Source: a virus
Lineage: Duplodnaviria > Caudoviricetes
Virus record (IMG/VR): IMGVR_UViG_3300032893_000040
Location: 1,637-65,636 of that record
Reading direction: 5' to 3' (one strand)
Length of the DNA: 64,000 nt
In this document: positions 7,585-24,863 of the stretch, in pieces
How the letters are laid out: every line of letters starts with the position of its first letter
How positions within the stretch are numbered: the stretch's first letter is position 1
Made by a program: the position numbers and the translations under genes
Notes under the pieces: model-generated
Database searches by the model: none
The model's input: only the letters and a program-made list of their open reading frames with translations
Told to the model about the DNA's origin: nothing

Positions 7585-7592
7585 GCGACAAC

Positions 7593-7653: not shown

Positions 7654-7671
7654 CAATCACAGGAGGAAGGT

Positions 7672-7875
7672 ATGGAACACTACACATTTCGAGCGAGTCT
7701 CCGGTTGTCCCGGAACTACAACTCGATCGAGGTCTCCGCGGAGTATGGTCGGGACCTGAAGCCGAAGGAGACTACGGAGCGGATGATCGAAGACGTAACG
7801 AAGACCGTGTGGGAGAAGCTGGAACGCGAGGCCGCACGCGCTGATGAAGTCCTCAATTCCACCAAGAAAGGATGA
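7672..7875 (+). CDS. hypothetical protein
   Basis: AGGAGG RBS; ATGA overlap with purZ. Confidence 0.75.
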   Translation: MEHYTFRASLRLSRNYNSIEVSAEYGRDLKPKETTERMIEDVTKTVWEKLEREAARADEVLNSTKKG

Positions 7876-9008: not shown

Positions 9009-9505
9009 TGGAAAGACCGAAACGAATCTTCTGGATGTTGGGTGAGCAACAGGCCGGGAAGTCCATGCTCACCCACGTGCTCCGATCTTACGGGGCATCC
9101 GTCCTCCAGATAGGGGAGGAGCTTCGTAAGACCATCACCCCGCGTGAGTTTGCTGAGATGAGCAACCCGTACGGCCCGGAGGAGGTCGAGAAGCGTGTGC
9201 AGGATATGATCTACACCGCCGTGCGGACCTTCGACCGGGACCCCCGGAGCACCGTGCTTGTCATAGATTCAGCTCCCCGGAACCGTGGACAGGCCCTCCT
9301 CATGCGGGACGTACAGGACATCAGCACGGTACTGTTCCTGTCGGAGAACTTCGAGGTCCGCAAGAATCGTGCCCGTCAGAGATACGGCAACGATCTCACG
9401 CTCTTCGAGAAAAGGGAGGCCTTCGAGAGGGCGTGGCTCGCGGAGTTCCTTCAGACCTGCATCGAAATGAACCTTGACTACATCGAGCTGAAAGGACAGG
9501 CATAA
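9008..9505 (+). CDS. adenylate-kinase-like (d)NMP kinase
   Basis: P-loop GEQQAGKS; IGEELR; LVIDSAPRNRGQA resembles the AK motif DGxPRxxxQ; TGATG coupling to purZ. Confidence 0.75.
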   Translation: MERPKRIFWMLGEQQAGKSMLTHVLRSYGASVLQIGEELRKTITPREFAEMSNPYGPEEVEKRVQDMIYTAVRTFDRDPRSTVLVIDSAPRNRGQALLMRDVQDISTVLFLSENFEVRKNRARQRYGNDLTLFEKREAFERAWLAEFLQTCIEMNLDYIELKGQA

Positions 9506-9606
9506 TGGCCACACGTAACGGTGATGAGGCCCAGACTACCGTCATGATTGTAATTCTTGTAATAGCTGGTATTCTGCTCATAGCACTCCATCCATGGGTG
9601 AATTAA
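9505..9606 (+). CDS. small single-TM protein (33 aa)
   Basis: VMIVILVIAGILLIAL; TAATG coupling on both sides. Confidence 0.55.
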   Translation: MATRNGDEAQTTVMIVILVIAGILLIALHPWVN

Positions 9607-10061
9607 TGGACGAGACCGAATTTCTGGTTTACATCGCCGACACGCGTGCTGGGATGCAGTTCAAAGCTCAGAAGGACGGAGACTGTGGATATGACCTCGA
9701 AGTCTGGTTTCCAAATGGGCAGACTGAGATTACTCTGCTCCCGTGGTCGTTCGTGGACCTGCCGACAGGTCTGTGCGTTAAGGTGGGCGATAACGCGTGG
9801 GGTATGGTCCGCCCAAGAAGCTCTACATTATTTAAACGTAGACTTCTCGTGGGTGAGGGCACAATTGATTCTGGGTATACGGGGCCTCTTTACGTCACGG
9901 TATACAACCCCACCCCGTACGCGGCGGTGATTAAGAACGGCGACCGTCTCGGCCAACTCATTCCTGTCCCCAAATTTAAGACTGTGAAGGTGACCTATGT
10001 CAGTGAAATGCCCAATACTGCGCGTGGGACCAGCGGATTCGGCTCAACCGGAGGGATTTAA
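9606..10061 (+). CDS. dut: trimeric dUTPase-family nucleotidohydrolase
   Basis: All five motifs: CGYDL, PRSS, GTIDSGYTG, GDRLGQL, RGTSGFGSTG. Confidence 0.9.
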   Translation: MDETEFLVYIADTRAGMQFKAQKDGDCGYDLEVWFPNGQTEITLLPWSFVDLPTGLCVKVGDNAWGMVRPRSSTLFKRRLLVGEGTIDSGYTGPLYVTVYNPTPYAAVIKNGDRLGQLIPVPKFKTVKVTYVSEMPNTARGTSGFGSTGGI

Positions 10062-10554
10062 TAATACAACTACCACCTGGAAAGGGAAGCGAAATTTCGG
10101 CAAGACAGTGTGCGTGGACTTCGACGGGGTGATCGCCGGGATGCAGAAGGGATGGCGCGGTCCTGATAGTTTCGGGCCAATCATACCGGGGGCGTGCTTA
10201 TCATTACAACGGCTTGCTGGCGATGGGTGGTACATCATTATTTTCACTACCAGACTTGTCACCCGTCAGTTGGTCGAATGGCTCAAAGGTAATTGCGTCC
10301 CATTTAATGATATCAACGGTCGGTGCTTCGTCGAGAAGGGCGTACTCTATGTGCGTCTCCAGCGTTACAATCGGTCCACCGTTGATTATCGCCCCGCCCG
10401 TCCCCGGTGGTACTGGAGACACAACCCGGAATGGGCCAGTATCAAGCCGATCGCGTCCGTCTATCTGGACGACCATGGTTGGCCCATCAAGGGTGACTTC
10501 ACGCCGAACGTGTGGAATGCGGTAGTAAGGGACCTGATAGATGGAAATTACTGA
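9997..10554 (+). CDS. HAD-superfamily phosphatase/nucleotidase
   Basis: CVDFDGVI, IFTTR, KP, YLDD; start codon uncertain. Confidence 0.8.
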   Translation: MSVKCPILRVGPADSAQPEGFNNTTTTWKGKRNFGKTVCVDFDGVIAGMQKGWRGPDSFGPIIPGACLSLQRLAGDGWYIIIFTTRLVTRQLVEWLKGNCVPFNDINGRCFVEKGVLYVRLQRYNRSTVDYRPARPRWYWRHNPEWASIKPIASVYLDDHGWPIKGDFTPNVWNAVVRDLIDGNY

Positions 10555-11860
10555 ACTTACGCTGGGGATACCTGACGACTTCCAGCGTACACTTATTGCA
10601 CTCATGTGTGCGGACCCGGATTGGTTGGAGGTGAACCGCCCGTTCGTTAAGGCGGAATTCTTCGACCGGATGGAGCACAGAGCCGTGGTGGGGTGCATAC
10701 TCGAGTTCTTCGATAAGCACGGGACTCCACCCACCTTTGACGTGCTGGATGACGTGATAAGGGAGAGGCTCCCCAATCCGGACCTCCTCGGCGCGTCTCT
10801 CCGGGAGATTTCCTGCGTGCAGGACATTGAAATCACTCTTTCCAAGGTGCGTCATGCCACAGATAAGCTACAAGTCTTCGCTGAAACTCAACATCTCCGT
10901 GAATGCATCAGAGCCGGAGCAATTGCCATCGACGGAGGAGATATTGCATCTGCTCGCCGTGCACTGGCTTCAGCCGAAGACGTTGCGCGGATCAACCACT
11001 CTGCGGTTCTCTCGATATTCGATGAAACTGGGATGGACGAGAGGTCCGATAAGGAGTCAGAAGTCGAGACGATGGACAAGATACCCACTCTTCATCGGGG
11101 TCTTGATAAAAAGCTTCGCGGAGGTTTTGCTCGTAAGGAGCTTCACATTCTTATGGCACCTCCTTATCGTGGCAAGTCGGCTGGCCTGGTTGATCTGGGG
11201 GGGAACGCGCTCTTTTGTGGGGCCAAGGTTCTCCACGTTACTTGTGAAATGTCGGCTAAGAAAACCGCCAGCCGATACGACCTCAAAATCTCCGGCATGA
11301 CGCGTGATGAGATAGAGGCTAACCCGACCGAGTTCAAAGCCCGGATGCTCCATTTCCAGAGCACCTTCAAGGGAAATCTGAAGGTCATCGAGTTCCCCTC
11401 CCGGTCGGCGACGGTGGCCGATATCGAAGCCCAGATGAAGTTCCTGCTCCGTAGGCAGAATTTTTGGCCCGACGTGCTCGTGGTGGACTATCTGGACGAA
11501 CTCAAGCGTCCGAACCGCGATAACGAGGCTTACGCACTCGGGCAAGTAACCTCCGAACTCCGTGCCCTCAACCAGAAGAGCAACACGGTCGGCCTGTCCG
11601 CTACCCAGACCACGAGACAGGGGTTCTCCAAGCAACGCCTCGACATGGACGACATCGGCGACTCCTGGGAAAAGGTGAAGATCGCCGACAGTCTCATAGG
11701 GATGTGTCAAACCAAGGATGAGGAAGATGACAACACCATGCGCCTGTACATGCTCAAGAACAGGGACAACCAGCGGAATTCATCCCCGGTCTTGATGCGG
11801 ACCATATTTGAACGGATGACGTTCAAGGACATCACATTCGAGGAAGGGGCGGCAAAATGA
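10541..11860 (+). CDS. DnaB-like (SF4) replicative helicase
   Basis: APPYRGKS, TCEMS, VVDYLD, SATQ, KNRD. Confidence 0.92.
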   Translation: MEITELTLGIPDDFQRTLIALMCADPDWLEVNRPFVKAEFFDRMEHRAVVGCILEFFDKHGTPPTFDVLDDVIRERLPNPDLLGASLREISCVQDIEITLSKVRHATDKLQVFAETQHLRECIRAGAIAIDGGDIASARRALASAEDVARINHSAVLSIFDETGMDERSDKESEVETMDKIPTLHRGLDKKLRGGFARKELHILMAPPYRGKSAGLVDLGGNALFCGAKVLHVTCEMSAKKTASRYDLKISGMTRDEIEANPTEFKARMLHFQSTFKGNLKVIEFPSRSATVADIEAQMKFLLRRQNFWPDVLVVDYLDELKRPNRDNEAYALGQVTSELRALNQKSNTVGLSATQTTRQGFSKQRLDMDDIGDSWEKVKIADSLIGMCQTKDEEDDNTMRLYMLKNRDNQRNSSPVLMRTIFERMTFKDITFEEGAAK

Positions 11861-13191
11861 GACTGATACCAGCAGGACCGATACTTTCGGTAACGGGGCA
11901 GGATTATCAATCCATCTCGCTCGCATGGACCGACATCTCTCAACCAGGGATCCCGGTGATAGGTTACCAGATTTATCGCGGTCTAGGCTCGAGCCCGTCG
12001 TCGTTCAGCCTGATCGCTACCGTGGGGAGACAACTCACTTATGTAGATCAGGGCCTTTCCCCATCAACCACTTACAGCTATTACGTAGTCGGGATTTACC
12101 AGCCGGGACTTCTCACGTCCCCATCCAACATCGTCACAGACACCACGGCGGCGGCTATTCCTTGGCTTTACGCGCTCCGGTCCGGGGCGATGGACATTTA
12201 CAACGTGGCTGATCCAGCACACATGTCGCTCAATAACAGCGACACAGCATATTCCCAGGGAAGTACAGCCAACCAGCAACTTGCCGATTCGGATTACCTG
12301 TATCTGGCAAACGACGGGAAGGTCGGCATCTATAGGTGGTCGGCCAATCCAACGGCACCCACCAATCCGTTTCTGTATAGCCATGCGAGCCAGATAATAG
12401 TGAGGCGCGGCCTCACCAACTACAACAATCTCATGCTGTTGTGGGTTGGGTCTCCATTTGCTGACATCGGCATCTATACCTACAACATCTCGAATCCGGC
12501 GAGTCCAACACAGCTTTATCATTCAACCGGGGACAGTGAGCTTGCGGCCGGACAGAAAGGCCCCGGTCATTCGGCATTCGCTTTTGACCCTGTTGGTGGG
12601 AAGCTCTGGTTCTGTACGGCGTGGACCGGATATAAGTACGAGATTTCGTATTTCCCCATAGCCTCTGACGGGACCATCGGGGCAATGAACACCATGTACC
12701 AGACCATCTGGGGCGGATCGAACGAAGCTTCGATGGCGTTCATCTACAACGGTAGGTTCTGGTACAACCAGAACCAGACATGGCTCAAGTCGTATTACAT
12801 GAACGGCGGCGGTGAAGCCATGACTCCGTGGACTTGGCCCGGAGCCGCGGGTGATTTCCATTATCAACCTCCGAGAATCGTTGGGGGGCACTATGCAATA
12901 TTTGGTGCTGATGGGGCCAACGCCGCTCACGGTGCGCTTATTGTGGTCGATCTCAACACAATGACGGTGGTTGCCAACATCGGAACCCTGAATACGCAGT
13001 GCACGTCGTTCACGATAGCGGGTCCTTACCTGTTTTACGTGACAGGGACCACCCTCTATGCGTACAACATCTCAAATCCGACCTCACCTTCACTGGTGAG
13101 TAGCCTCGGCAGTCTACCGGCCTCTGCCATCGGCTTGACAGGGTACGCGTCCACAGGCTGGGATGGGAATAACGGACTCTGCACGTCATGA
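11857..13191 (+). CDS. fibronectin-III plus beta-propeller (LVIVD-like) protein
   Basis: SISLAW..GYQIYR..TYVDQGLSPSTTYSYYV; three YN(V/I)(A/S)(D/N)P blade ends; LIVVDL. Confidence 0.7.
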   Translation: MRLIPAGPILSVTGQDYQSISLAWTDISQPGIPVIGYQIYRGLGSSPSSFSLIATVGRQLTYVDQGLSPSTTYSYYVVGIYQPGLLTSPSNIVTDTTAAAIPWLYALRSGAMDIYNVADPAHMSLNNSDTAYSQGSTANQQLADSDYLYLANDGKVGIYRWSANPTAPTNPFLYSHASQIIVRRGLTNYNNLMLLWVGSPFADIGIYTYNISNPASPTQLYHSTGDSELAAGQKGPGHSAFAFDPVGGKLWFCTAWTGYKYEISYFPIASDGTIGAMNTMYQTIWGGSNEASMAFIYNGRFWYNQNQTWLKSYYMNGGGEAMTPWTWPGAAGDFHYQPPRIVGGHYAIFGADGANAAHGALIVVDLNTMTVVANIGTLNTQCTSFTIAGPYLFYVTGTTLYAYNISNPTSPSLVSSLGSLPASAIGLTGYASTGWDGNNGLCTS

Positions 13192-14120
13192 TAAACGTCA
13201 ATCAAATCGCCGCCGTATTCGGAACGATCTGGGATTCACACGGTCCCGAGTACAAAGTCACGTGCCCCAAGTGTAGCACGAAGGCACTCTGGATTAACGT
13301 GAGGAAGCACGCTTATCACTGCTTCTCCTGCGGGGACGGGGGGGCACTCCAGCTTTTGGTTCCTGGATGGGCACCGAGTATCACGGCTCAATGGGTCGGG
13401 GCGAGTGAGAAGGAGACATTTGAAATTCCGGATGTCCTTCCACTTAGCTACATGAGGATAAGGTCTCGATGCGACTATCGGCCGGGGTGGGACTACATCG
13501 AGCATCGTGGAGTTCAGGCCGGGGCGGTGGAATGGGGTGTCGTGCCCGGAGATTCGGCTGTGTACTTCCCGATGAGGGAGCAGGGTAGAATAGTTTATTG
13601 GCAATCCCGGTCTCACTCCTGGGTGGAGAAGCGCAAAACCCAGAACCCGAAGGGTATTGCTAAAAGTGAAGTCGTGTATCGGATTGATGAATTGGGGGGC
13701 GGGGATGTTTTTCACGCGATCTGTATCATCGTGGAGGGAATCTTCGATGCGCTCCGGGTGGGCGGCGTGGCCACCCTCGGCAAGACCTGCAGTCCGGCAC
13801 AGGCTTATAAGATTCTGAACCGGAGGCCTTACGTAATCTTCGTGGTGTACGACGATGATGCGTATGAGGCTTCGAAGGTCACGGCGAAGATGTTCTCGGA
13901 GATGGACCGGAGCATACCTGCGATTCCTGTTTACATCACCGGGGGTGACCCTGCTGATCTCGGATGGGATTACGTGAGGTTGGCTATCAGAGCGGCCCTT
14001 TGGGGCCATGAATCAATTTGCTCACTATGCGGCGTAAGCGCGAAATCGATCGAGACACGGTTGCTGGAGATGTCCCCAAAGACTGCGCTATCATGCTCCC
14101 GGTTATCTCCACCGCGTTAG
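13188..14120 (+). CDS. DNA primase (Zn finger + TOPRIM)
   Basis: CPKC...HCFSC, IVEGIFDAL, YDDD, GDPAD. Confidence 0.9.
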   Translation: MINVNQIAAVFGTIWDSHGPEYKVTCPKCSTKALWINVRKHAYHCFSCGDGGALQLLVPGWAPSITAQWVGASEKETFEIPDVLPLSYMRIRSRCDYRPGWDYIEHRGVQAGAVEWGVVPGDSAVYFPMREQGRIVYWQSRSHSWVEKRKTQNPKGIAKSEVVYRIDELGGGDVFHAICIIVEGIFDALRVGGVATLGKTCSPAQAYKILNRRPYVIFVVYDDDAYEASKVTAKMFSEMDRSIPAIPVYITGGDPADLGWDYVRLAIRAALWGHESICSLCGVSAKSIETRLLEMSPKTALSCSRLSPPR

Positions 14121-14622
14121 CATGCCCCGCCGCTTGGGCACTCGTGCCCCGGAGTTTGGTATCGTAGAACACGCGTTCGGCACGGGTGACCAGCGGACGG
14201 GGGGGTGCGAGCAGGAGTTCCAGAACGCGCCTGTCGATGTCAAATTCCAGGGCCATGGAGATCATGTCGGCGTACTCCTTCAGCACGAGCACGTCGAACG
14301 GTGAAGGTTCCCGCGACTCGAGTATCTCCTCCCCCCACTCGTCCTTGAGACCGTCATCTTCAAGACCGAACGTGCGCGAATAGGCGCGGTAGAAGTCGCA
14401 GAGTAGGTTGTGTATCGAGGTACGAAACAGTGCGGTGAGTTCCGCATCCGGGATGCTGGTGCGCCGGAGTAGCTCAACCAGCTTGATGGCGCACTCCTGC
14501 CTGAGGTCCTCCGCGATGCGGTAACGGAAGCTGGAGGAGAACCGTGCGCACATGTGCTCGACGTACGGACCTACCTCCTGCCAGATACGATCAAACCGCT
14601 TATCAACGTGTTGGCTTCGCAT
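13987..14622 (-). CDS. phage sigma70-family (ECF-sized) sigma factor
   Basis: Region 2 AEDLRQE...IHNLLCDFYR; region 4 HTH MIAQSLGTSPATVSRSISRLR. Confidence 0.85.
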   Translation of the reverse strand: MRSQHVDKRFDRIWQEVGPYVEHMCARFSSSFRYRIAEDLRQECAIKLVELLRRTSIPDAELTALFRTSIHNLLCDFYRAYSRTFGLEDDGLKDEWGEEILESREPSPFDVLVLKEYADMISMALEFDIDRRVLELLLAPPRPLVTRAERVFYDTKLRGTSAQAAGHANAVEITGSMIAQSLGTSPATVSRSISRLRRIVSKLIHGPKGPL

Positions 14623-14788
14623 CTTCGAGGACCAGGGCTATCATTTTCTCCCAGATTTTCAGGTCCTCGTGCTGGGACACGTTGGGGACGGCGACCTTCA
14701 CGTTGACGATCGACCACTTTCGCCTACCCCGCTTGGGTCCGGCATCCACCTTGGCCGGGAGTCCCATGAATTTAGTGTACGTTGCCAT
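14603..14788 (-). CDS. hypothetical protein
   Basis: AGGAG RBS; operon continuity. Confidence 0.55.
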   Translation of the reverse strand: MATYTKFMGLPAKVDAGPKRGRRKWSIVNVKVAVPNVSQHEDLKIWEKMIALVLEDAKPTR

Positions 14789-15065
14789 CTTTCTTCTCCT
14801 TCCGAAAAGCAGAGGGATAATACCCGCCGAATCCGTTGCCACCTTTCCGCATCACGAGTTCGTGATTGCGCCTGAGCCGGGACTTTGCTTCAAGTTCCGG
14901 GTATCCCAGAAGCTCGTTCGTCTTTCTGATCGAGTGCAGGGGGTGCCCACATTGACTGCAGTAGAGCGAATTGCTCCTGTATCTCCACACGTCCCCGCAG
15001 TGTGTGCACATCTTTTTGATGTACACGGGGGAAAGCCGTGGCACCGTGTTCTTTCTGTGACCCAT
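14772..15065 (-). CDS. Zn-ribbon protein
   Basis: CTHC...CSQC. Confidence 0.65.
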   Translation of the reverse strand: MGHRKNTVPRLSPVYIKKMCTHCGDVWRYRSNSLYCSQCGHPLHSIRKTNELLGYPELEAKSRLRRNHELVMRKGGNGFGGYYPSAFRKEKKDGNVH

Positions 15066-15287
15066 TCACACCCCCGGCAGTTGCTTCACGCGGACGACCT
15101 TCAGGCACGCGGCTCGGAGACCGTCGCGGATGGTTGCTTCAAGATCGGCCTTCATCATGCTCGTGTCCGCTTCCACCGTCACCGAGAAGGTTGCTCGGAC
15201 CGTCCTCTCCCTTTTTGCCTGGTCCTCGTAGAACTTTGTTCTTTCCGGTGAATTCAGATCGGGTGCTTCCTGCTGGTCCGACATCAT
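15066..15287 (-). CDS. hypothetical protein
   Basis: GGAGG RBS; ATGA overlap. Confidence 0.65.
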   Translation of the reverse strand: MMSDQQEAPDLNSPERTKFYEDQAKRERTVRATFSVTVEADTSMMKADLEATIRDGLRAACLKVVRVKQLPGV

Positions 15288-15706
15288 TCCTCCAATTCTG
15301 GTTTGAAAAATTGTTTGATGAGTGCCTTTGCACTCTTGTCTTTGGTGAGTTCGGTGATTGCATCAAAATCGTCTTTACGGTACGCGTCCGCGAATTTTTG
15401 AAGCACGGCGCGGTCATCCTCGGGGAGATCGAGGAGCACGTTTACGTCCACCTGATAGAACTTGGCTAGCCCCTGCATGTAGCTCGACGGCTTGACCGAC
15501 ATTTCCTGCAGTCCGAGTTCGAACCGTGCCGCATGGTCCGGGCACATGGGTTCATGGAAGATGCAGTCGAATTTCTTCATTACTACCACCTCGGTGGCCT
15601 CGGCCATGCACCCCGGTCGGGTACAGGTCGGGTACTTGGAGATGCCGAAGTAGTTCTCCGTAAGCTGGTACGGACGCTTCTCGAGCACTTCGATCATTCG
15701 TTTCAT
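15284..15706 (-). CDS. hypothetical Zn-binding protein
   Basis: CTRPGC...CPDH; start moved to MKRMIEV (GAGG RBS). Confidence 0.65.
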   Translation of the reverse strand: MKRMIEVLEKRPYQLTENYFGISKYPTCTRPGCMAEATEVVVMKKFDCIFHEPMCPDHAARFELGLQEMSVKPSSYMQGLAKFYQVDVNVLLDLPEDDRAVLQKFADAYRKDDFDAITELTKDKSAKALIKQFFKPELEE

Positions 15707-15723
15707 CTTGTTCCTCGATATAG

Positions 15724-15758
15724 AGGGGTGGCTGGGCAAGTCGCACCCAGCCACCCTT
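15724..15758 (-). terminator. GC-rich hairpin after the 15763 gene
   Basis: GGGTGGCTGGG/CCCAGCCACCC 11-bp stem; weak U-tract. Confidence 0.5.
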
Positions 15759-15762
15759 CCGG

Positions 15763-16251
15763 TTAGCTGATCAGGTCCGCGACCCTCGCGGCCTTGCCCT
15801 TCTTCCCGGCACCAGCCGGAGGGGGTGCGAAGTCGTCCGTTGCCTCACCTGCCGCTTTCGCCGTGTCGGGTGCGGGTGTGGCCTTCACGGGTTTCTCCGT
15901 CTTCGGGGCCTTCACAGCCTTCCCCTTGGCCGGGGGAGCGTCCTTCTTCCCCTTGAGCGCGGCCAGCTTCTCCTTGCTCTTGGCCTTCTTGCAGTCGTGG
16001 CACGCCTTGACCTGGAACACGTCGGACGTGAACACGCGATCGGTGTGGCCGCAGTCCAGCTTCATCTCGACCGAGTACTTGTTGTGGTCGGAGTCGAACT
16101 GCATGGACCCCTTCGTGATCTTCTTGTCCGGGTATTTCGCCCGGAGTGCGGCTTCCCGCGATTCGAGAGTCTTTTCGGGTTTCGTCGCCTTTGCTTTGGC
16201 CTCGGCGACCTCTTCCTTGGTAGGAAGAACAGGCCGTTCGCGCTTTGTCAC
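15763..16251 (-). CDS. early Zn-finger protein with Lys/Ala/Pro tail, paralog of 21042-21455
   Basis: LRAKYP..GS..NK..KLDCGHT..TSDVFQVKACHDC; GTG start with AGGAGG. Confidence 0.8.
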   Translation of the reverse strand: MTKRERPVLPTKEEVAEAKAKATKPEKTLESREAALRAKYPDKKITKGSMQFDSDHNKYSVEMKLDCGHTDRVFTSDVFQVKACHDCKKAKSKEKLAALKGKKDAPPAKGKAVKAPKTEKPVKATPAPDTAKAAGEATDDFAPPPAGAGKKGKAARVADLIS

Positions 16252-16280
16252 TGGTACCTCCTGTTGGGTTGTGTGGTTGT

Positions 16281-16466
16281 TTAGTTGATGTAACATAAAG
16301 CGATGTGCATCTTGCGTCCGATCTTGACCGCGTACACCACCATCACCTTGCTCGGTTCACTGAGAATAATGATGGTGTCATTGACGAGTTCATACACGAA
16401 CCCTTTGATCACCTCCTTGTCTTCCTCTATTTCCGAACCTTCAAGGTCCAGACAAACTATAGTCAC
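16281..16466 (-). CDS. hypothetical early protein
   Basis: 4-nt overlap within a coupled gene chain. Confidence 0.55.
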   Translation of the reverse strand: MTIVCLDLEGSEIEEDKEVIKGFVYELVNDTIIILSEPSKVMVVYAVKIGRKMHIALCYIN

Positions 16467-16738
16467 CTTCGCCTCGCGATTGCCGCTCGAATGGTCCCAG
16501 CGGTGAAGCCCATCTGTTTCATGGTGTCGGTGATCTCGTCATTGAGAGACTGGATGGCGAGATTCCGGGACACCTGACTCCGGGAAGAATAACTCCGGAC
16601 TGTGGTATCGATCTTGCACTCCACTCCACGAAATCCGAAGACGAGAGTGTACCAGACACCTGTGATGGGTGGGGTAGCACTCCAATCTGGGTCCGTGTGT
16701 TCATTGAGCTGAATGACCTTGAGCGTCGTCCTCTTCAT
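16463..16738 (-). CDS. hypothetical early protein
   Basis: AAGGAG RBS; ATGA overlap. Confidence 0.6.
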   Translation of the reverse strand: MKRTTLKVIQLNEHTDPDWSATPPITGVWYTLVFGFRGVECKIDTTVRSYSSRSQVSRNLAIQSLNDEITDTMKQMGFTAGTIRAAIARRR

Positions 16739-17076
16739 AGGGTCTCCTTGGTGACGAGCTTCTCAGGCCAGTATCCGTACCACCCTCTGTCTCCTCCTGC
16801 AAGCTGGACTCCAAAGTGACAGCCAGACGGAGAAAGTCGCTCCATCGCACTCCAGAGGTCTTCGTGAAACCACCAGAACATCTGATCGGTCTTCCAGAGA
16901 ACGTCATCCGGTGGAAGCCCAAGGAAATGGCCGTCCTGAACGAATTCGGACGGGCACGATTTGAGAAGCTCCCCGCACAGCGTCGGGTTCTCTTCATCGA
17001 TGAGACGCATGAACTTCGGGACGATCTCCTCTATTCTCTCGGAATACTGGCAGATTCTTTGGCCCTGATAAGTCAT
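16735..17076 (-). CDS. hypothetical early protein
   Basis: AGGAGG RBS; SPSGCHFG...YGYW C-terminus. Confidence 0.7.
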   Translation of the reverse strand: MTYQGQRICQYSERIEEIVPKFMRLIDEENPTLCGELLKSCPSEFVQDGHFLGLPPDDVLWKTDQMFWWFHEDLWSAMERLSPSGCHFGVQLAGGDRGWYGYWPEKLVTKETL

Positions 17077-17348
17077 CTTTTCCTCCTTCCTCCGTGAAAG
17101 TAGGGCACCGGAGCAACGACGTGCTTCGGATTCGCCATACGGAAACCGGACGTGTGGCGTTTGGCCCTCGTGATTCTCGCTTTGCGGGAACGTTGCCTCG
17201 CGGCGGACTGTTCTGCCTTCTCACGCGTCACGCGGTCGGCAACGACCTCCTTCATGTCCACCGTGAATTTCTCGAATGTTCCCGCAACGGGATGAACAGG
17301 TCTTTGAATGGCGTTGAGTATCGCCTTTATGGGATTTCCCTTCCTCAC
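17073..17348 (-). CDS. hypothetical basic early protein
   Basis: GGAGGT RBS; GTGA overlap. Confidence 0.6.
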   Translation of the reverse strand: MRKGNPIKAILNAIQRPVHPVAGTFEKFTVDMKEVVADRVTREKAEQSAARQRSRKARITRAKRHTSGFRMANPKHVVAPVPYFHGGRRKR

Positions 17349-17644
17349 ATCACCTCCAGTGGATGTATTGGTATGTGAACTGAGTTGATCTTCCGGAACG
17401 TAACGGTGGTCCGCTGGGTCGAACCATAGTCCGCGGGTTTCTCAAACACCCAGCCGATGGTGGCTTCCTCACCGTTGCAGTCTTCCGTCACCCGTCCCAC
17501 GAACCTCTCGGGCGGGTAGTCGTGCTTCACGTCAGCGAGGGCGTTCTTGAGGCTCGAATACCTTCGGGTCTCCGTGTGGGGGTCGTGCCATTTCTCCTGG
17601 CCCTTCTCCCGGTACTGGACCTCAATCAGCACTTCGTAAGCCAT
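17345..17644 (-). CDS. hypothetical early protein
   Basis: Start moved to MAYEVL; TIGWVFEK. Confidence 0.6.
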   Translation of the reverse strand: MAYEVLIEVQYREKGQEKWHDPHTETRRYSSLKNALADVKHDYPPERFVGRVTEDCNGEEATIGWVFEKPADYGSTQRTTVTFRKINSVHIPIHPLEVM

Positions 17645-17897
17645 CGGCTTTCCTCCTCTTTTGCATTTCGGCAACCATCTCTTCTGCTTCGTGACTCCTT
17701 CGATCGAGAATGGCTTCCCATTCCTTCTGAAGCTGATCGAGGACAAACTGGCGGCTCCCCCGGATGTTCAGCACCTCCTTGGCTAGCGCGTATGCGCTCC
17801 GTCCGCGAGTCTTCAGTCCCTTCATCTCCAGCGCGAGTCTGTGCTTGAGCTGAAGGATGAGCATGTCGCGGCGGTTTGGGTTATCGATGGCGATCAA
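17622..17897 (-). CDS. hypothetical early protein
   Basis: AGGAG RBS 8 nt before TTG; LALEMKGLKTRGRSAY. Confidence 0.55.
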   Translation of the reverse strand: MIAIDNPNRRDMLILQLKHRLALEMKGLKTRGRSAYALAKEVLNIRGSRQFVLDQLQKEWEAILDRRSHEAEEMVAEMQKRRKADGLRSAD

Positions 17898-17901
17898 ATC
17901 A

Positions 17902-18126
17902 TCAGCTCCTATAGAATTTGCCCGTCCTTTCTATGGTGCCTGTCGTTACCGTGACGTGCACCTCGGCTTCGATCATGAAATCTTTGTCGCATCCCCCGGT
18001 TTCGTTGTCGCAGGAGACGATGCTCTTGTGGAAGAGCGGATATCCGGGCGCATCTTTGTTATCGGTGAGCCGGAGTTCGTTGACGTGCCCACAGTAGGGA
18101 CACACCACTTTGACACTTCTGGTCAT
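17902..18126 (-). CDS. small Zn-ribbon protein
   Basis: CPYC...CDNETGGC; TAATG coupling. Confidence 0.65.
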   Translation of the reverse strand: MTRSVKVVCPYCGHVNELRLTDNKDAPGYPLFHKSIVSCDNETGGCDKDFMIEAEVHVTVTTGTIERTGKFYRS

Positions 18127-18359
18127 TACTGCCTCCCGTATCTTGTGGTCGAGCGATCGAGGTCCGCACCTGTCCAGTGCGGGTTGACTATCCTGTGCAT
18201 TCGGTTGAAGACTGCGGTGGTGATGAGGGTCTTCTCATCAGCGTGGGTGTACTGAGCGACGAATTTCCGGTCGGCGGAGTTCAGGCCGTACGGCTGGACT
18301 GCCAGTAGCTTGGCCTTCTCGACGTTCTCAAGAAAGATGCGCATTCGCTGTTCGGTCAT
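18126..18359 (-). CDS. hypothetical early protein
   Basis: GGAGG RBS directly after a promoter module. Confidence 0.65.
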   Translation of the reverse strand: MTEQRMRIFLENVEKAKLLAVQPYGLNSADRKFVAQYTHADEKTLITTAVFNRMHRIVNPHWTGADLDRSTTRYGRQ

Positions 18360-18388
18360 GATTCGCGTCCTCCCATACCGTTATAGCA

Positions 18389-18464
18389 ACAAATCGCGTG
18401 CCAATGCGGCGATGGCCCCGTCCGCACCGGGAAGGGCCATCGCGCTTGGCTTGGGTGTTTAGTC
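18389..18464 (-). promoter_or_regulatory. sigma54-type early promoter module, copy 3 (shortened)
   Basis: Minus strand GACTAAACACC...CGGACGG-N14-TGGCACG-CGAT-TTGT. Confidence 0.6.
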
Positions 18465-18473
18465 CGCAGTACA

Positions 18474-18761
18474 TCATTGTTTACTCCGTGCTACAGCCAC
18501 CTGACGATTCACTTTCTTGTAAGCTTCCTTCCACCCCGCGAACTCCCCCTCCTCGAATGCCTCAAATAAGCTGTTGGAATTCCATCTGCCCTCGATATGG
18601 TAGGTCGGATGGCCCTCGAACTGCCGGGAATTCTCAGATATCTCGTGACAAGCACCAAGGAACTTGTCCTCATCGGCGAGTTCCGCTTCGGTGAAATCGC
18701 CGAGGTCTCCTATCTGGAGACCTTCCTCATATCCGAGTTTATACGCTTCGCGCTTATTCAT
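18474..18761 (-). CDS. hypothetical acidic early protein
   Basis: GGAGG RBS; ATGA overlap. Confidence 0.65.
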   Translation of the reverse strand: MNKREAYKLGYEEGLQIGDLGDFTEAELADEDKFLGACHEISENSRQFEGHPTYHIEGRWNSNSLFEAFEEGEFAGWKEAYKKVNRQVAVARSKQ

Positions 18762-19120
18762 GTTTTGGATTTCCTCCCGTCTACGTGTGCCTTCTCCTTG
18801 TGTAGCTTGACCGTTATCCTGACGTAGTGAAACATGTTGTCCGGGTCAGTTTTTATCGTGTGACCGTGGACATCGAGCACAGTAACGTTCCCAAGGTCAC
18901 GCATGACTTGTGTCACGGTCCGAACCACGTTGATTAGGAGCGGCTCAATCTTCACGTCTTCCTCGAAGATGAGCGTAGCCTGCCACCCCTTGTTCTCGAC
19001 GAAGACGTTCGTCACCTTGAGGTCGGTGGCTTTGCGAAGGCGGACGGCAAGCTCGTTCGTCACGCGTTGCGTCTTCGGGGTCTTCGAGCGTGGGTGGTTG
19101 ATGCGAATGTCCGGTCTCAC
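18758..19120 (-). CDS. hypothetical early protein
   Basis: GGAGG RBS; TAGTG coupling. Confidence 0.65.
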   Translation of the reverse strand: MRPDIRINHPRSKTPKTQRVTNELAVRLRKATDLKVTNVFVENKGWQATLIFEEDVKIEPLLINVVRTVTQVMRDLGNVTVLDVHGHTIKTDPDNMFHYVRITVKLHKEKAHVDGRKSKT

Positions 19121-19227
19121 TAATCCCTCCCGATGTTTATGAAGCGGTGAAGCCCGTAGGCGAGTGCTCCAAGTAGGAACAGCCCCACCCCGAGCAAGAT
19201 GACGAGTGCAAAGAAGAGTTCACTCAT
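19120..19227 (-). CDS. small single-TM protein (35 aa)
   Basis: MSELFFALVILLGVGLFLLGALAYGL; fills the gap between neighbours. Confidence 0.55.
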   Translation of the reverse strand: MSELFFALVILLGVGLFLLGALAYGLHRFINIGRD

Positions 19228-19525
19228 AGTGCGGCCTCCTCTGCTCCCCAACGAATGTCGCTCCGATAGGCAAGCCACCGTAGTAGGCGACGTCCGGGCG
19301 TTTGGTTACTACTGCATGGTAAGTTGTGTTCCGGTAGTGCGTTCGGTGGTTCTTGTGCTGGGCAAGCGGTTCGACCTGCCGCATCCAGCGGCGTGCTTTG
19401 CGTGCCTTGCGGAATCTACGGGCGTAGAGCGGGTAGAAGGCATCGAACCACCATCCGCCTTCCTCGGGTCCGCCGTACTCGCGGACGTGCTCGAAGATGA
19501 TCGCATTCCATTTCGGCTTTGGCAT
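19220..19525 (-). CDS. hypothetical early protein
   Basis: REYGGPEEGGWW and RPHYE motifs; start moved to MPKPKW. Confidence 0.65.
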   Translation of the reverse strand: MPKPKWNAIIFEHVREYGGPEEGGWWFDAFYPLYARRFRKARKARRWMRQVEPLAQHKNHRTHYRNTTYHAVVTKRPDVAYYGGLPIGATFVGEQRRPHYE

Positions 19526-19529
19526 CGTA

Positions 19530-20276
19530 TCACCCTTCGATTTGTTTGGCACCACCACCGATTGCTCCACCAAGCGGGATGTTCGACCCCGCCCGATGCC
19601 CTGCTTGACGGCCGAGATAATTCCCGGCACTGTGGTTCACTTTCGCCATCCGGATTCCGCGTCTTTCCTTCCATTCCTGCAGAGCGAAATCCTTGACCCG
19701 GATGAGAGCGGTCCCGGTGTTGCTTGATGCCTCAACGTTGCGCTTGCGTTGGATTGCGAGGTCCGCGCATCGAGAGCAGATAGCGGCGGCAAAGGCCAGT
19801 CCATGCCCCGCTTTGAATTTCATGGTAAGGGAGGGAGTCCACGTGCGAGGGTAATCAGACAATTCGTTCTCGTCCTTGGCTTCCTGCAGGTCGGCCTCGA
19901 CGATGCTGAACCACGAGCGGTACAAGTGTTCGAAGAGCATCTTCATCGGTTCGATGTCGGACTTGTGGCCGACGAAGGTGAAGCGCGTTCCCCAGAGGCC
20001 TTTATTGACCAGTACCGTGCCATCGAACAGAATCGCGCACCCGTGCCCGAGGCTCATTATCCAGTTGAGCTTCATCTTCTGGTCGGGCACGGTGTAAAGC
20101 TCTTCCACGATGGGGTCGTTTTTGGTTTCCTTGAGGAGGACTTCAGCCTCCTCAATCTGGTACTTCTCCATCAGTTCAGATGCCCGTTGAGCGGCGAGTT
20201 TGGCCTCGTGCTCGTTGGGCGACGTGGCGAGTGCCAAGAGCTTCTTAATCTTGGCGAGAGTCTCTTCGCGTGTCAT
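19530..20276 (-). CDS. DUF2786-domain protein
   Basis: KIKKLLALATSPNEHEAKLAAQRASELMEKY N-terminus. Confidence 0.8.
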   Translation of the reverse strand: MTREETLAKIKKLLALATSPNEHEAKLAAQRASELMEKYQIEEAEVLLKETKNDPIVEELYTVPDQKMKLNWIMSLGHGCAILFDGTVLVNKGLWGTRFTFVGHKSDIEPMKMLFEHLYRSWFSIVEADLQEAKDENELSDYPRTWTPSLTMKFKAGHGLAFAAAICSRCADLAIQRKRNVEASSNTGTALIRVKDFALQEWKERRGIRMAKVNHSAGNYLGRQAGHRAGSNIPLGGAIGGGAKQIEG

Positions 20277-20473
20277 CGTCCGGTCCTCACTTCCTCGATC
20301 CCCCTGCGGACCGCCGCGATGGAATCAACCTCCTTGATTGCAGCTTCCAGGCCTTCAATGACTCCTGTCTGCAGCACCAAGGCGTGAATTGTTTCAGCGT
20401 TCCTGCGTGTGCGCTTGTATCCGTCGAGCAATTCCTCGAGCCTGCGCTTGATGACGACCTCGATGGGGTCCAT
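20273..20473 (-). CDS. hypothetical early protein
   Basis: Start moved to MDPIEV with AGGAGG RBS. Confidence 0.65.
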   Translation of the reverse strand: MDPIEVVIKRRLEELLDGYKRTRRNAETIHALVLQTGVIEGLEAAIKEVDSIAAVRRGIEEVRTGR

Positions 20474-20528
20474 CGTTCCTCCTGTTTTGGTTTGTGGTCG
20501 GGCGTTCGCCCGGATACTCCGGAATGCC

Positions 20529-20624
20529 GCAAACAGCGTGCCAACGACAATTTGCCCGTCCGTTCCGGGGAGGGCACTTCTGATTGCCTTAAGTGTCCAC
20601 TCCCCGGAACATCGGTGTTTAGTC
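20529..20624 (-). promoter_or_regulatory. sigma54-type early promoter module, copy 2
   Basis: Minus strand ends TGGCACG-CTGT-TTGC, an exact -24/-12 consensus; upstream blocks shared with copy 1. Confidence 0.72.
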
Positions 20625-20630
20625 GGTAGG

Positions 20631-20873
20631 TCACCCAACGTCAAACAGCTCCTCGATGGGTTCGTCTTCGCTTCCCTGGTACTCGCAGAAGCCCGATACG
20701 AACTGAAGCGGTTCGTTCTCGATGATAGCCAAGGCCAAACCAAGTACGTTGTCGATTGCCGTTTGCCTTGCTTCGTCGGGCAGGTCGTGGTTCTTGAGGG
20801 TTGCGAGGTCTTCCTCGCTTATCTCCACCTCGATTGAGCGTTCGAGGTTCTGGGTGTACAGGACTTTAGGCAT
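20631..20873 (-). CDS. hypothetical acidic early protein
   Basis: Start moved to MPKVLY with AGGAGG RBS. Confidence 0.65.
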   Translation of the reverse strand: MPKVLYTQNLERSIEVEISEEDLATLKNHDLPDEARQTAIDNVLGLALAIIENEPLQFVSGFCEYQGSEDEPIEELFDVG

Positions 20874-20983
20874 TTGGTCCTCCTGTTTGTTTGGTTTGTG
20901 TCGATGACGAGTGCCGTTTGGTTTTGACGGCCTCCGGTCGGCCCAGGAGAGTGTGGCTTGGGCCAAGCGCAGTCCGTCCGTGC

Positions 20984-21023
20984 AAACACAAAGGTGCCCT
21001 CTCCCCCCGAAGGGAGAGAGGGC
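20984..21023 (-). terminator. intrinsic terminator after the first early gene
   Basis: GCCCTCTCTCCC-TTCG-GGGGGAGAGGGC (cUUCGg loop) followed by ACCTTTGTGTTT. Confidence 0.7.
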
Positions 21024-21041
21024 GGACTTCAGCCCTCTGCG

Positions 21042-21455
21042 TCAGGCCGCTGTGGCTGAAGCTTGCTTCGCCTGCTCGCGTGCCGCTTTCCGGGCGGCGG
21101 CCTTCTCGTGCCGCTTCGCCTTCCGCCGCTCGCGTGCGGCTTCCTTCGCGCACGACTCGCACGCTTTCACCTGAAAGAGGTCGGACGTGGCAAGCCGGAC
21201 CGTGTGTCCGCACTCCAGCTTGCGCTCGACCGTCTGCTTGTTCGCGTGCGTGCCCTCCGTCTCCCACCGAAGCGAACCGGGCACGACACCGGGGTACTTC
21301 GTCCTCAGGTCTCCCTCCGTCAGCCGCTTGGACTTCGGTGGTTTGGGGTCCGGCGTGGGTGCTGGTGTCGCGGTGGCTTGCGTCTGTTCGGTCTCGACTG
21401 CTTGCGCTGGGGTGGCGTGCGTGGTCGGCTCGGGCTTTCCGTTCTTGCGGCTCAC
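21042..21455 (-). CDS. first early gene: Zn-finger protein, paralog of 15763-16251
   Basis: LRTKYP..GS..NK..KLECGHT..TSDLFQVKACESC; GTG start with AGGAGG. Confidence 0.8.
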   Translation of the reverse strand: MSRKNGKPEPTTHATPAQAVETEQTQATATPAPTPDPKPPKSKRLTEGDLRTKYPGVVPGSLRWETEGTHANKQTVERKLECGHTVRLATSDLFQVKACESCAKEAARERRKAKRHEKAAARKAAREQAKQASATAA

Positions 21456-21518
21456 TGTGTCCTCCTGTCGTCTGGTCTCGGGCTCCGGCGTGTCCGGCGC
21501 GCCCGTGCCCTTTCTGCC

Positions 21519-21615
21519 ACAAACGACGTGCCAGAGTCCGGGTGGTCCGTCCGCGCAGAAGAGGGCACAAAGGAGAGGCTCAAGTGTCTGGTCCTTAGGA
21601 CACTGGTGTTCACTC
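21519..21615 (-). promoter_or_regulatory. sigma54-type early promoter module, copy 1
   Basis: Minus strand GAGTGAACACC-N16-GACACTT-N13-GTGCCCTC-N7-CGGACGG-N13-TGGCACG-TCGT-TTGT. Confidence 0.68.
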
Positions 21616-21921
21616 CGCGCTACAGAGTTCGTCAGACCCGCGAGGGACGCGGGTCTCCGCGCTGTGGCAAGTGTCCAGCGGAGAGGACGGTCGAGGTGGC
21701 GTGCGCGGCTGTCAAGGTGGCAGGCCACCCCCCTCCCTCCGGGTGGGCTTGGGTGCTTGGGGGGGACTTGCGCGGTCGGTCCGGGCTGTGTTTTTTGTGC
21801 GTGTGCGCGACGACCGTCCGTCCGGCGGGACGGGAGACAGAGGGCAAGCAGACAGCAACCAAGGAGCAAGCAGTGCGGGACACGGGGCAAACGGCAGAGG
21901 GCAAGGAAGCAAGCAGGAGAG

Positions 21922-21998
21922 AGCTGTCAGCCAGTCAGCTTACCCTTGACAGCTTGTCAGCAGTCAAGCTGTCAGCTTTGACCTGTCAGCTTGACAGC
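21922..21998. repeat. cluster of GTCAGC / TTGACAGC direct and inverted repeats
   Basis: GTCAGC at 21926, 21934, 21956, 21971, 21985; TTGACAGC at 21946, 21991. Confidence 0.8.
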
Positions 21999-22243
21999 AA
22001 GAGGCAAGAGGCCAACAGCAAGCAGACAGCGGCCAAAGGCGAACCCAACAAGGCCAGCCGGAGGACCCAGACCCCACCCCCCGTTGCCCCCGCAAAGGAC
22101 CCGAGAGGACCCAAGGGAGTAGCAACAGTTCTTTCTCTGACCCTGCTTCCTAGCCGCCAGTTTTCTTGCCCCAATATTTCATTTTCTAATCTCTTTTGCT
22201 CTGGAGGACCCAGCTTGACCTTGACTGCTCTAAGGACTGCATA

Positions 22244-22969
22244 ATGTCAGTCTCCGGGAAGAAATCCTCGAAGCCGAAGCCCAACTGGGACGCTCTGCCC
22301 CCTGAACTCAGGGACGAGGCGGCTAACGCCGCCGAGCGTCAGGAGTCCCTCCCTCCGGCCGAGGACCCGATCGACTACCACCGGGACGTAACCCAGCTCA
22401 TCAATCGTCTTGAGGCCAACCGTGGTAAGTCAATCCAGCTTGAGAACCTCGCCTACAGCCCGAACCCGGTTTCCGATTCTCCCCTCCTGGACCAAAACAT
22501 CGCCCCTGAGAGGCTTACGTATCTTGCTTTCGTCGAGAAACTTGCTCGTGCTGGCCTCACGGTTGAACAGGTCTCTGACGTGCTTGGAGTACCGGTCAAG
22601 CGATTCTCAGCTCAGCTCAAGCGAGATCGCGTTCTTGGAGCCATGTTCAACCGTGGCAAGGCCGAGGCTGACCGTCTCGTGGCTGAAAGCCTGTTCCGAC
22701 GCGCTCTAGGATTCAGCTACGACGAAATCACCATCGAGTCCTCGGTGGACGGGGAAGGCGCGGTGACCGCCAAGGAGAAGCGGACCCGCAAGTTCATCCC
22801 GCCCGACGTGCAGGCCCAGATGGCGTGGCTCACCAACCGGGACGGCCAGAACTGGAAATCCACCGTCAATATCAAGGACAGCGACACCAAGAAAATCATC
22901 GTCGTCCGTGAACTGCAGGGCCTGGGCGATGACGAGCTTGAGAAGCTGGCCAAGGAGAGCGCGAATTGA
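22244..22969 (+). CDS. terS: terminase small subunit
   Basis: HTH GLTVEQVSDVLGV; VAESLFRRALG; PPDVQAQMAWLTNR; start moved to MSVSGK. Confidence 0.8.
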   Translation: MSVSGKKSSKPKPNWDALPPELRDEAANAAERQESLPPAEDPIDYHRDVTQLINRLEANRGKSIQLENLAYSPNPVSDSPLLDQNIAPERLTYLAFVEKLARAGLTVEQVSDVLGVPVKRFSAQLKRDRVLGAMFNRGKAEADRLVAESLFRRALGFSYDEITIESSVDGEGAVTAKEKRTRKFIPPDVQAQMAWLTNRDGQNWKSTVNIKDSDTKKIIVVRELQGLGDDELEKLAKESAN

Positions 22970-23184
22970 TACCCGGAATCCCTCCCCCGAACGCCAGTGC
23001 CAAATGTCCGGAGTGTGAGCACGAGTTTTATTTCTACTCCACCAAGGACGTGGACTTCTGGCCCGTCTGCCGCAAGTGCGGGGCCAAGTTTCACGTGAAG
23101 ACCAAGCAGGGAACATCGAGCGTAGCCGAACAGCGTGAAGATGTGGAGAGATGGAAGTCAGAACTGAACATACGGGAGAATTGA
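22966..23184 (+). CDS. small Zn-ribbon protein
   Basis: CPEC...CRKC. Confidence 0.6.
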   Translation: MIPGIPPPNASAKCPECEHEFYFYSTKDVDFWPVCRKCGAKFHVKTKQGTSSVAEQREDVERWKSELNIREN

Positions 23185-24863
23185 AGCGGCTGATGCGGTC
23201 CCGCTCCCCCAAGGCGAAAGCCGTGATCGGGGAGCTTGCGCGGCGCGAGATCGAACGCCGCAGGGCCGAGAATCCGCTCAAGTATTTTGTCCCCAACGGC
23301 TGGTCCGAGAAGTTCATCCACGCCGTGGGGCACAAGCTTGAGAAATGGATATTCATCCTTCCCGCCGCCAACTCCATTACGAAATCGGCTTCCACCATCA
23401 ACATCCTCGGGAACCTCATCTGGGGTCCGCAGAACCTCAGGTGGTACAACGGGCCGCGCTTCGAGCTTCCCTGGACCTCCCCCAAGAAATTCTGGTACAT
23501 CTCCCGCCGTGCCACCCTCGAGGAGTTCATTTGCGGCTCCGACAGCACGACCGAGAACGAGATATCCAAGTGGTTCCCACAGGGACGTTACACCTTCAGC
23601 AAGTCGGGGCGCGAGTTCAATTCAAGATTCATTTCGGACACCGGATGGGTAGGCTCGTTCAAGACCTACGACCAGGAAACCAACCAGTTCGAGTCCGACA
23701 AGATCGGTGTCGCGGTCTTTGACGAGCCACCCCCGGAAGCCGTTTACAACGCGGTCCTCGCCCGAATGACCGTGGGAAGCCCGATCGTCATCATGCCGAT
23801 GACCCCCTTGACCTATTCGGCGTGGATTAAGGACCGTCTCATCGACGGCGCGGGGCCGAACTCGCCCGTTGAGGTCTTCTACGGCGACATCGAGGAGAAT
23901 TGTCAGGAGCACGGGGTCCGGGGCAGGCTCTCCCACAAGCGTATTGAGGAACTGATCGCTCAGTATGACGAGGATGAACGCGAGGCCCGAGCACACGGGC
24001 TGTTCGCCCACCTCTCCGGCCTCGTATACAAGTCCATACATCCGGAGGTGAACCGCCACCAGATTCCGGCCAGGGAGTTCAACCAGACCATCTCCGCCAC
24101 CGAGTTTGCGGACGGGAAGACCAACTACAAAATCTTCTGCGTCTGCGATCCCCATGACTCGAAGCCCCCCATCATCGGGTGGTTCGCCGTCGATCGCTGG
24201 GGGACCATCTGGGCCGTCGATGAGTTCCCCAGCGAACGCCACAACACCGAGTTCAAGCCTTTCTACGACTATAAACCCGGACAGTGGAGACTCACCATTG
24301 AGCAGACGTGCGAATGGATTAAGAAAATCGAGGAACGGAACGGGTGGAACGGAAAGCTCATCACCCGCGTCATGGACCCCAATTTTGGTCGGAAGCCTGA
24401 GCAAACTGTGGGTCGCACTATTGCCCAGCATTACCGTGATTGTGGTTCGAAACTCAAGTATCCCCTCCATTTTACGACGGACGTGCTCGACGACATCGAC
24501 ACGGGACATCAAGTCGTCCGTGAATTTCTCGCTATCAATCCAGACAACCAGACCAGACTGAAGATCGGGCACTTCTGCTCAAACATCTGGTTCTCGATGA
24601 CGCACTACATGCGGAAAGTGCAGTCCGCATCCTCACTCGAAGCGAACGGTCCCACCGAACTCGTGCAGGTCAAGTTCAAGGACGGTGCAGACCTCGTGCG
24701 CTACATGTCGGTGTACTTCCGCAAGCCCGGAAAGCCGAGACCCGAGGAGAAGGAGATCAGGACTCTGGATGACATGGTAGAGCGTCAGTTGGAACGCAAC
24801 AGGAAGCGTGCGGCGGCAATGGCAAGGCCGAGACCCCAATATGAGGATTCGTCCTACATATGA
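23151..24863 (+). CDS. terL: terminase large subunit
   Basis: AANSITKS (Walker A variant), VFDEPP, MTPL, EREARAHG, nuclease CDPH and KDGADLVRY. Confidence 0.88.
   Translation: MEVRTEHTGELKRLMRSRSPKAKAVIGELARREIERRRAENPLKYFVPNGWSEKFIHAVGHKLEKWIFILPAANSITKSASTINILGNLIWGPQNLRWYNGPRFELPWTSPKKFWYISRRATLEEFICGSDSTTENEISKWFPQGRYTFSKSGREFNSRFISDTGWVGSFKTYDQETNQFESDKIGVAVFDEPPPEAVYNAVLARMTVGSPIVIMPMTPLTYSAWIKDRLIDGAGPNSPVEVFYGDIEENCQEHGVRGRLSHKRIEELIAQYDEDEREARAHGLFAHLSGLVYKSIHPEVNRHQIPAREFNQTISATEFADGKTNYKIFCVCDPHDSKPPIIGWFAVDRWGTIWAVDEFPSERHNTEFKPFYDYKPGQWRLTIEQTCEWIKKIEERNGWNGKLITRVMDPNFGRKPEQTVGRTIAQHYRDCGSKLKYPLHFTTDVLDDIDTGHQVVREFLAINPDNQTRLKIGHFCSNIWFSMTHYMRKVQSASSLEANGPTELVQVKFKDGADLVRYMSVYFRKPGKPRPEEKEIRTLDDMVERQLERNRKRAAAMARPRPQYEDSSYI

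Follow-up and report, generated by a model that had tools for sequence, protein, structure and literature searches.

The DNA analysed here (the window) comprises 64,000 nucleotides, bases 1637-65636 of the 65,636-bp virus record IMGVR_UViG_3300032893_000040 (Duplodnaviria; Caudoviricetes), and carries on its minus strand a block of small genes in which three copies of one sequence module of ~110 bp (P1, P2 and P3; Table 1) were found. Each module ends on the gene-proximal side in a core reading TGGCACG-N4-TTG, for which the 64-kb window holds three exact matches against 0.14 expected, a number that none of 100 dinucleotide shuffles reached. All three cores are minus-strand sequences whose TGG begins at 21533, 20543 and 18403, so that the three sites listed by the initial annotation of this DNA are borne out, and they occupy the three terminator-less intergenic gaps of the minus-strand block. 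The start codons (GTG at 21455, ATG at 20473 and ATG at 18359) follow the end of TTGY after 63, 55 and 29 nt, respectively, and each of them is preceded by a GGAGG-type ribosome-binding site, which agrees with the earlier placement of the promoters 30-65 nt before genes led by such sites. Allowing one mismatch adds a single site (9374, minus strand), located inside the plus-strand replication block, and with up to two mismatches the window contains 23 matches where 18 are expected, which is background.

The P2 core agrees with all 11 specified bases of TGGCACG-N4-TTGC, and the cores of P1 and P3 have the form TTGT at -12. In promoter numbering, GG is present at -25/-24 in all three copies, -13/-12 is GC in one and GT in two of them, and the 10-bp spacing is exact throughout. 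TGGCACG and TTTG are invariant, whereas each copy has its own three intervening bases (TCG, CTG and CGA). Since fixed ends flanking a free spacer are the pattern expected of a -24/-12 promoter, the core is considered sigma-54-like. In the promoter region of E. coli pspA, where the psp promoter is of the sigma-54 class, the sequence is TGGCACG-CAAA-TTGT, with the same TTGT form as in P1 and P3. That the cores have the spacing, the orientation, the intergenic position and the base sequence of sigma-54 (-24/-12) promoters is thus supported at the sequence level.

The upstream part of the module, ~85 bp in length, has an equal layout in all three copies within +/-1 bp. Box A (GAsTrAACAm, -108 to -99) is always followed after 22 bp by box A' (GAsyrrACAC, -86 to -77), then by GCCCT at about -59, CGGACGG at -46 to -40 and finally TGGCACG at -26 to -20. 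Exactly 30 bp separate ACAC from CGGACGG in each copy, and between CGGACGG and TGGCACG the gap varies, from 12 to 14. A TGT-N12-ACA dyad is found in every copy, one per module, with its centre near -88, and the double box, like the pattern AACA-N4-TGT-N12-ACAC, occurs in only these three places in the window. Between -112 and -40, 37 of the 73 ungapped columns are invariant, compared with a mean of 4.8 (standard deviation 2.2, maximum 21) among 20,000 random triples, and the pairwise identity among the copies is 62-68%. Constraint rather than recent copying is indicated, because the conservation falls into blocks parted by free positions and the identity is low. The boxes and the dyad had already been recognized in the initial annotation and are real, but P3 had been described there as retaining only two boxes, whereas it keeps the whole layout. 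With their position at about -77 to -109 the boxes fall where enhancer sites usually do, and are predicted to be activator sites.

Table 1. Promoter modules, transcription units and gene blocks of the window; positions are those of the window.
Feature	Position	Strand	Details
Module P1	21519..21615	-	box A 21615-21606, A' 21593-21584, GCCCT 21566-21562, CGGACGG 21553-21547
P1 core	21533-21519	-	TGGCACGTCGTTTGT; predicted start site 21507
Module P2	20529..20624	-	box A 20624-20615, A' 20602-20593, GCCCT 20575-20571, CGGACGG 20562-20556
P2 core	20543-20529	-	TGGCACGCTGTTTGC, full consensus; predicted start site 20517
Module P3	18389..18486	-	box A 18486-18477, A' 18464-18455, GCCCT 18437-18433, CGGACGG 18424-18418
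P3 box A	18486-18477	-	overlaps stop codon of the upstream gene
P3 core	18403-18389	-	TGGCACGCGATTTGT; predicted start site 18377
Block of ~22 small genes	21455 down to 13987	-	tightly packed
Gene A	21042..21455	-	137 aa, GTG start; sole gene of the P1 unit
Intrinsic terminator-like hairpin	20996..21023	-	12 pairs, 9 of them G-C, then T-rich tail; just 3' of gene A
Gene B	20631..20873	-	80 aa; between the terminator and P2, without a sigma-54 core of its own
P2 unit	18474..20473	-	six tightly packed genes
P2 genes 1-3	20273-20473; 19530-20276; 19220-19525	-	second gene DUF2786/DUF7168
P2 genes 4-6	19120-19227; 18758-19120; 18474-18761	-	fourth gene encodes a 35-aa hydrophobic peptide
P3 unit	14603..18359	-	~14 small genes, back to back; first 18126-18359, last 14603-14788
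Extracytoplasmic function (ECF)-like sigma candidate	13987..14622	-	211 aa; last gene of the block, converges on the plus-strand primase gene
Replication block	~2750-14120	+	family A polymerase, gp32-like, PurZ-like, dUTPase-like, DnaB-like helicase, primase-like zinc-ribbon protein
Divergent gap		 	740 bp, non-coding, purine-rich; between the small-gene block and the structural genes
Structural and lysis block	~22200 to 60175	+	
Second minus-strand block	crosses the record ends	-	O-like initiator, SbcCD-like proteins, HNH nuclease

Gene A, the only gene between P1 and the terminator-like hairpin, encodes a protein for which no family match was found. Its structural model, with a mean predicted local distance difference test (pLDDT) score of 75.7, combines a small Cys/His beta core with a long basic helix and is disordered at the N-terminus; none of the at least 500 PDB matches of this model was at E <= 0.001. 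A paralog is encoded in the P3 unit (15763-16296, minus strand; 43% identity over 92 residues, E 8e-21), and the pair shares a KL.CGHT.R..TSD.FQVKAC core as well as Lys/Ala-rich tails. Four homologs of gene A are present in the protein collection, one of them (P0122, 64%) on a contig of 20,226 bp, and no relatives were found in IMG/VR. The public protein record for gene A (P0121) has 228 aa and covers 21042-21729, the start being called far upstream and across the whole P1 module; judged by its ribosome-binding site, the GTG at 21455 is more likely to be the start of gene A.

In the interior of the P3 unit neither a further sigma-54 core nor a predicted terminator between genes was found. The candidate sigma gene that closes the block matches TIGR02937 over its full length with 32 bits (E 8e-8), below the cut-off of 42.9 bits, and PF04542 with 22.5 bits against a cut-off of 24. 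Because the block consists of small orphan (ORFan) genes, most of whose products have no Pfam or PHROG match, its genes are presumed to be early, as would fit a block for host takeover. Three genes of the block have a C/A-rich leader directly before the ribosome-binding site (16247-16277, 20468-20498 and 20869-20899, minus strand; ACCAAACAAACAGGAGG-like), which may be a translation enhancer.

The virus record is rated 100% complete and is without end repeats. Three wetland DNA sequencing runs carry the stretch or part of it, and no RNA run was among the holders found; the contigs from these three runs equal the window save for one low-depth difference and hold no diversity information. No DNA similarity to GenBank phages was found, the large terminase has at most 34% identity to any GenBank phage terminase, and a tRNA search returned nothing. 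The 740-bp divergent gap beside the small-gene block contains at 21920-22000 a dense cluster of the octamers CTGTCAGC, TTGACAGC and TTGTCAGC, which makes a 34-nt inverted repeat and may serve as an array of operators, as an origin or for packaging. In a second divergent gap, which separates the gene of the O-like initiator from the polymerase block, a 38-nt inverted repeat is located at 2326-2438, with arms that are 74% complementary and lie 37 nt apart. At the far end of the structural block, a 1039-aa protein (53667-56786, plus strand) combines two family 2 glycosyltransferase domains with a methyltransferase and a family 17 glycosyltransferase-like domain, which is unusual for this place in a phage genome.

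Sigma-54 promoters stay silent without an activator that uses ATP to open them. We consider it probable (about 0.65) that the three units serve host sigma-54 as enhancer-dependent promoters at the head of the presumed early block, with an activator binding to the boxes. The host polymerase carrying sigma-54 (E-sigma54) would bind the core as a closed complex, which a protein seated at the boxes (about -77 to -109) would open by ATP hydrolysis after looping of the DNA. Most simply, the opener would be an AAA+ enhancer-binding protein of the host; the boxes resemble the dyad that such proteins usually bind (TGT-N12-ACA). A bending or helper protein could occupy the GCCCT/CGGACGG stretch from -60 to -40. 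P1 would then give rise to one small protein followed by termination, and P2 together with P3 to a long operon ending in the phage sigma factor, which would take over the later genes. Since the block would be driven by activator-opened sigma-54 promoters, the start of infection would hinge on the activity of one host activator. The sigma-54 interpretation given in the initial annotation is retained as far as sequence, spacing, orientation, position, boxes and the ECF-like sigma gene at the block end are concerned, but for the putative cascade proposed there, from sigma-54 by way of the phage sigma to replication, a promoter motif for the phage sigma was not found; likewise, no consistent ECF-type motif was seen, and the other intergenic gaps have no common motif besides ribosome-binding sites.

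The phage itself has no match to sigma-54 (PF04552, the DNA-binding domain). Its endolysin consists of GH108 and PG_binding_3 domains, which together with the strong GGAGG ribosome-binding sites suggest a Gram-negative host, and the evidence points to a host that is non-Bacteroidota and Shine-Dalgarno-using as well. Sigma-54 is common in the phyla of such hosts, so that this would be compatible with the use of sigma-54, but proves nothing. The endolysin gave no further clue to the host in the Protein Atlas, where it fell into viral clusters only.

Several observations weigh against promoters of this kind, or against a host activator opening them. The three copies are paralogous, and therefore represent one ancestral motif kept three times rather than three independent matches; two of the three cores have T in place of the conserved C at -12, and a 22-bp direct repeat is a second way to read the boxes, at odds with the dyads usual at enhancer sites. 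In the whole 65.6-kb record no PF00158 domain was detected, and no GAFTGA-like or ESELFG-like motif occurs in the six reading frames; that a GAFTGA protein is lacking had been noted before. Whether rpoN and a fitting activator are available depends on the host, and neither the 57 IMG/VR loci nor the six bacterial contigs with a related terminase, which are distant and of mixed phyla, allowed the host to be identified. The initial annotation had proposed that the boxes be sought in the genomes of candidate hosts, and scans of bacterial genome contigs met with no success: the double box has 13 matches in them, none of which has a sigma-54 core within 110 nt, and the composite module has six chance-like matches there, with the limit that these scans used exact patterns and would miss a diverged host site. 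Several of the double-box matches in genome contigs are 22-bp tandem repeats, which in the two cases examined lie inside long open reading frames. Scans with module and boxes returned four loci in viral contigs and seven in metagenome contigs, all of them unrelated and chance-like; four of the seven metagenome matches are one soil locus that has a plausible bacterial sigma-54 promoter without the boxes.

The relatives of the phage add to the points against. The terminases of the 57 related IMG/VR loci share at most 54% identity with that of the phage, which is too distant for a test of conservation, and in the available DNA of the three closest loci (L006-L008) TGGCAC-N5-TTG does not occur. 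Because the motif was not found in these three and is present in four of the 57 loci as one isolated match each, the promoter element would be either young or host-specific. Closer relatives are known as proteins only, namely P0002 (terminase, 77%) and the gene A homolog P0122, which appear to be encoded on the same 20,226-bp contig; single-protein scans of viral and genome contigs for close relatives returned nothing.

Bacterial sigma-54 promoters of the pspA/PspF, glmY/GlrR and glnAp2/NtrC type are like the modules in their -24/-12 core and exact spacing, and bacterial enhancer-dependent promoters are also like them in having conserved upstream sites, which here lie at -77 to -109. They differ from the present case, where a lytic-type phage genome without an activator gene has the same module three times in 3.2 kb. 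The phage boxes are unlike the upstream region of psp. For GlrR, a site consensus of TGTC-N10-GACA is given in the accessible text of one study, in which three such sites lie more than 100 bp upstream of E. coli glmY (PMC3045617). The dyad of P1 is an exact TGTC-N10-GACA, and those of P2 and P3 differ from this published form at one and two of eight positions, respectively. With the exact site in one of three copies and a single dyad per module near -88, the modules were not assigned to the GlrR/QseF regulon as the accessible text describes it. No site resembling the IHF consensus, in the form quoted in the available part of PMC3045617, is present between the boxes and the core, where the GC-rich GCCCT and CGGACGG are found instead.

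Published precedent among phages is thin and consists mainly of YuA, a tailed Pseudomonas phage without an RNA polymerase of its own, which is reported in the accessible part of PMC10914365 to be dependent on host sigma-70 and sigma-54, with one sigma-54-like promoter for which the start site was mapped. The surprise at finding sigma-54 in a phage that had been expressed in the initial annotation was thus somewhat overstated. In the GenBank record of YuA, three active promoter-trap fragments are annotated as '-24/-12 consensus', all in late genes (scaffold, virion protein and tail), and TGGCA-N6-T[TC]GC does not occur in the first 50 kb of the genome. No repeated enhancer module is annotated in these 50 kb, and none is mentioned in the accessible text of PMC10914365. 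YuA contrasts with the phage described here, in that weak sites in late genes stand against near-perfect cores heading a small-gene block with a common upstream module of ~85 bp. With no DNA similarity between the phages, and with YuA fragments that belong to late genes and lack a close consensus, homology to the YuA promoters was rejected. The literature search, which did not cover supplement tables, found no paper in which the early genes of a phage lie behind sigma-54 promoters that have an enhancer module in common.

The modules might alternatively be promoters or operators for another factor, either the ECF-like sigma of the phage or a host sigma of the sigma-70 family acting with a phage cofactor, the likeness to sigma-54 then being coincidental. 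The conserved blocks do not fit a -35/-10 pair, because the distance of CGGACGG from TGGCACG is not constant (12 to 14) and no conserved bases are found 16-18 nt past TGGCAC, and an ECF-like GGAAC-N16-CGTT match is found in P2 only. Although the phage does encode a sigma-like protein, its gene comes last in the very operon whose transcription would begin at these promoters. According to the accessible text of PMC10914365, nine promoters of YuA are conserved, phage-specific and presumed to require phage factors, which would set an example for such a system. Two of the three cores do lack the C at -12, but agreement with the sigma-54 consensus at 11 of 11 bases and at the right spacing, kept through divergence, would hardly be expected by coincidence, so that this explanation is regarded as unlikely.

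In favour of the sigma-54 reading, a search for sigma-70-like promoters found none on the minus strand of 13500-23500; the three matches in this region are all on the plus strand, with 2.7 expected. At least 10 of the 12 bases of the sigma-70 consensus are present at two sites in the genome, neither of them in the block: the first lies within a structural gene, the second at the extreme right end. The latter (63958-63992, plus strand; TTGACA-17-TATACT, 11 of 12) is the lone near-consensus sigma-70 promoter of the genome and points outward. If the genome is circular or permuted, this promoter would read antisense into the minus-strand genes of the left end.

A further possibility is that the modules are true sigma-54 promoters which are opened by a factor that the phage supplies, delivered with the virion or made very early, and which binds the boxes without having an AAA+ activator domain. 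As far as searched, the boxes are specific to the phage, given the outcome of the double-box and composite scans of genome contigs, but the same exact-pattern scans would not have retrieved a host site that had diverged. The block is rich in proteins of unknown fold, among them that of gene A, the sole product of P1, with its Cys/His core, its long basic helix and no PDB match; however, a product of these same promoters cannot start them. The phage lacks both the PF00158 domain and the GAFTGA motif, and we know of no sigma-54 activator described without an AAA+ ATPase, which makes this explanation improbable.

An extended form of this idea takes into account that the phage DNA may contain 2-aminoadenine replacing adenine, which would also affect the melting of promoters. 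This is suggested by the PurZ-like gene at 7872-9008 (plus strand), whose top NCBIfam match is NF038379 ('succino-amino-deoxyadenylate synthase PurZ') with 228.8 bits (E 8e-68), below the cut-off of 300 bits. The best PDB matches of the protein are the short adenylosuccinate-synthetase-like chains 6fm1, 6fko and 6tnh (E 3e-46), and the matches also include 7odx, which is named PurZ; for the two proteins neighbouring the PurZ-like enzyme, no DatZ/MazZ-type PDB match was obtained. It is conceivable, but quite doubtful, that host sigma-54 serves the whole early programme by way of a private three-part enhancer, read by a phage-delivered or phage-encoded activator that is not AAA+, with 2-aminoadenine DNA, which is possibly present and harder to melt, favouring energy-driven opening. 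If true, sigma-54 would be opened here by a way not yet described.

That the modules are not promoters at all, but arrays for replication or partition proteins (22-bp repeats in the manner of iterons) or else a structured element of RNA or DNA, is very improbable. In its favour, the double-box pattern did mostly retrieve 22-bp tandem repeats in bacterial contigs, which in the two examined cases sit inside long open reading frames, as origin iterons do, and the phage has an O-like initiator. Against it, each module has two boxes only and stands at a fixed distance from a -24/-12 core that is aimed at a gene, no such boxes are in or near the O-like gene, Rfam has no match for the modules, and the covariation term of their consensus RNA fold is unfavourable (+1.12).

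If host sigma-54 does use the three units as enhancer-dependent promoters, as preferred here, a lytic phage would have placed its first genes behind promoters of this class, and the start of infection would either be conditional on a host signal or the phage would bring its own key along. The complete genome with three clean promoter-plus-enhancer units provides well-defined fragments for in-vitro transcription, reporters and pull-downs. More generally, the finding suggests that the use of sigma-54 by environmental phages is under-appreciated.

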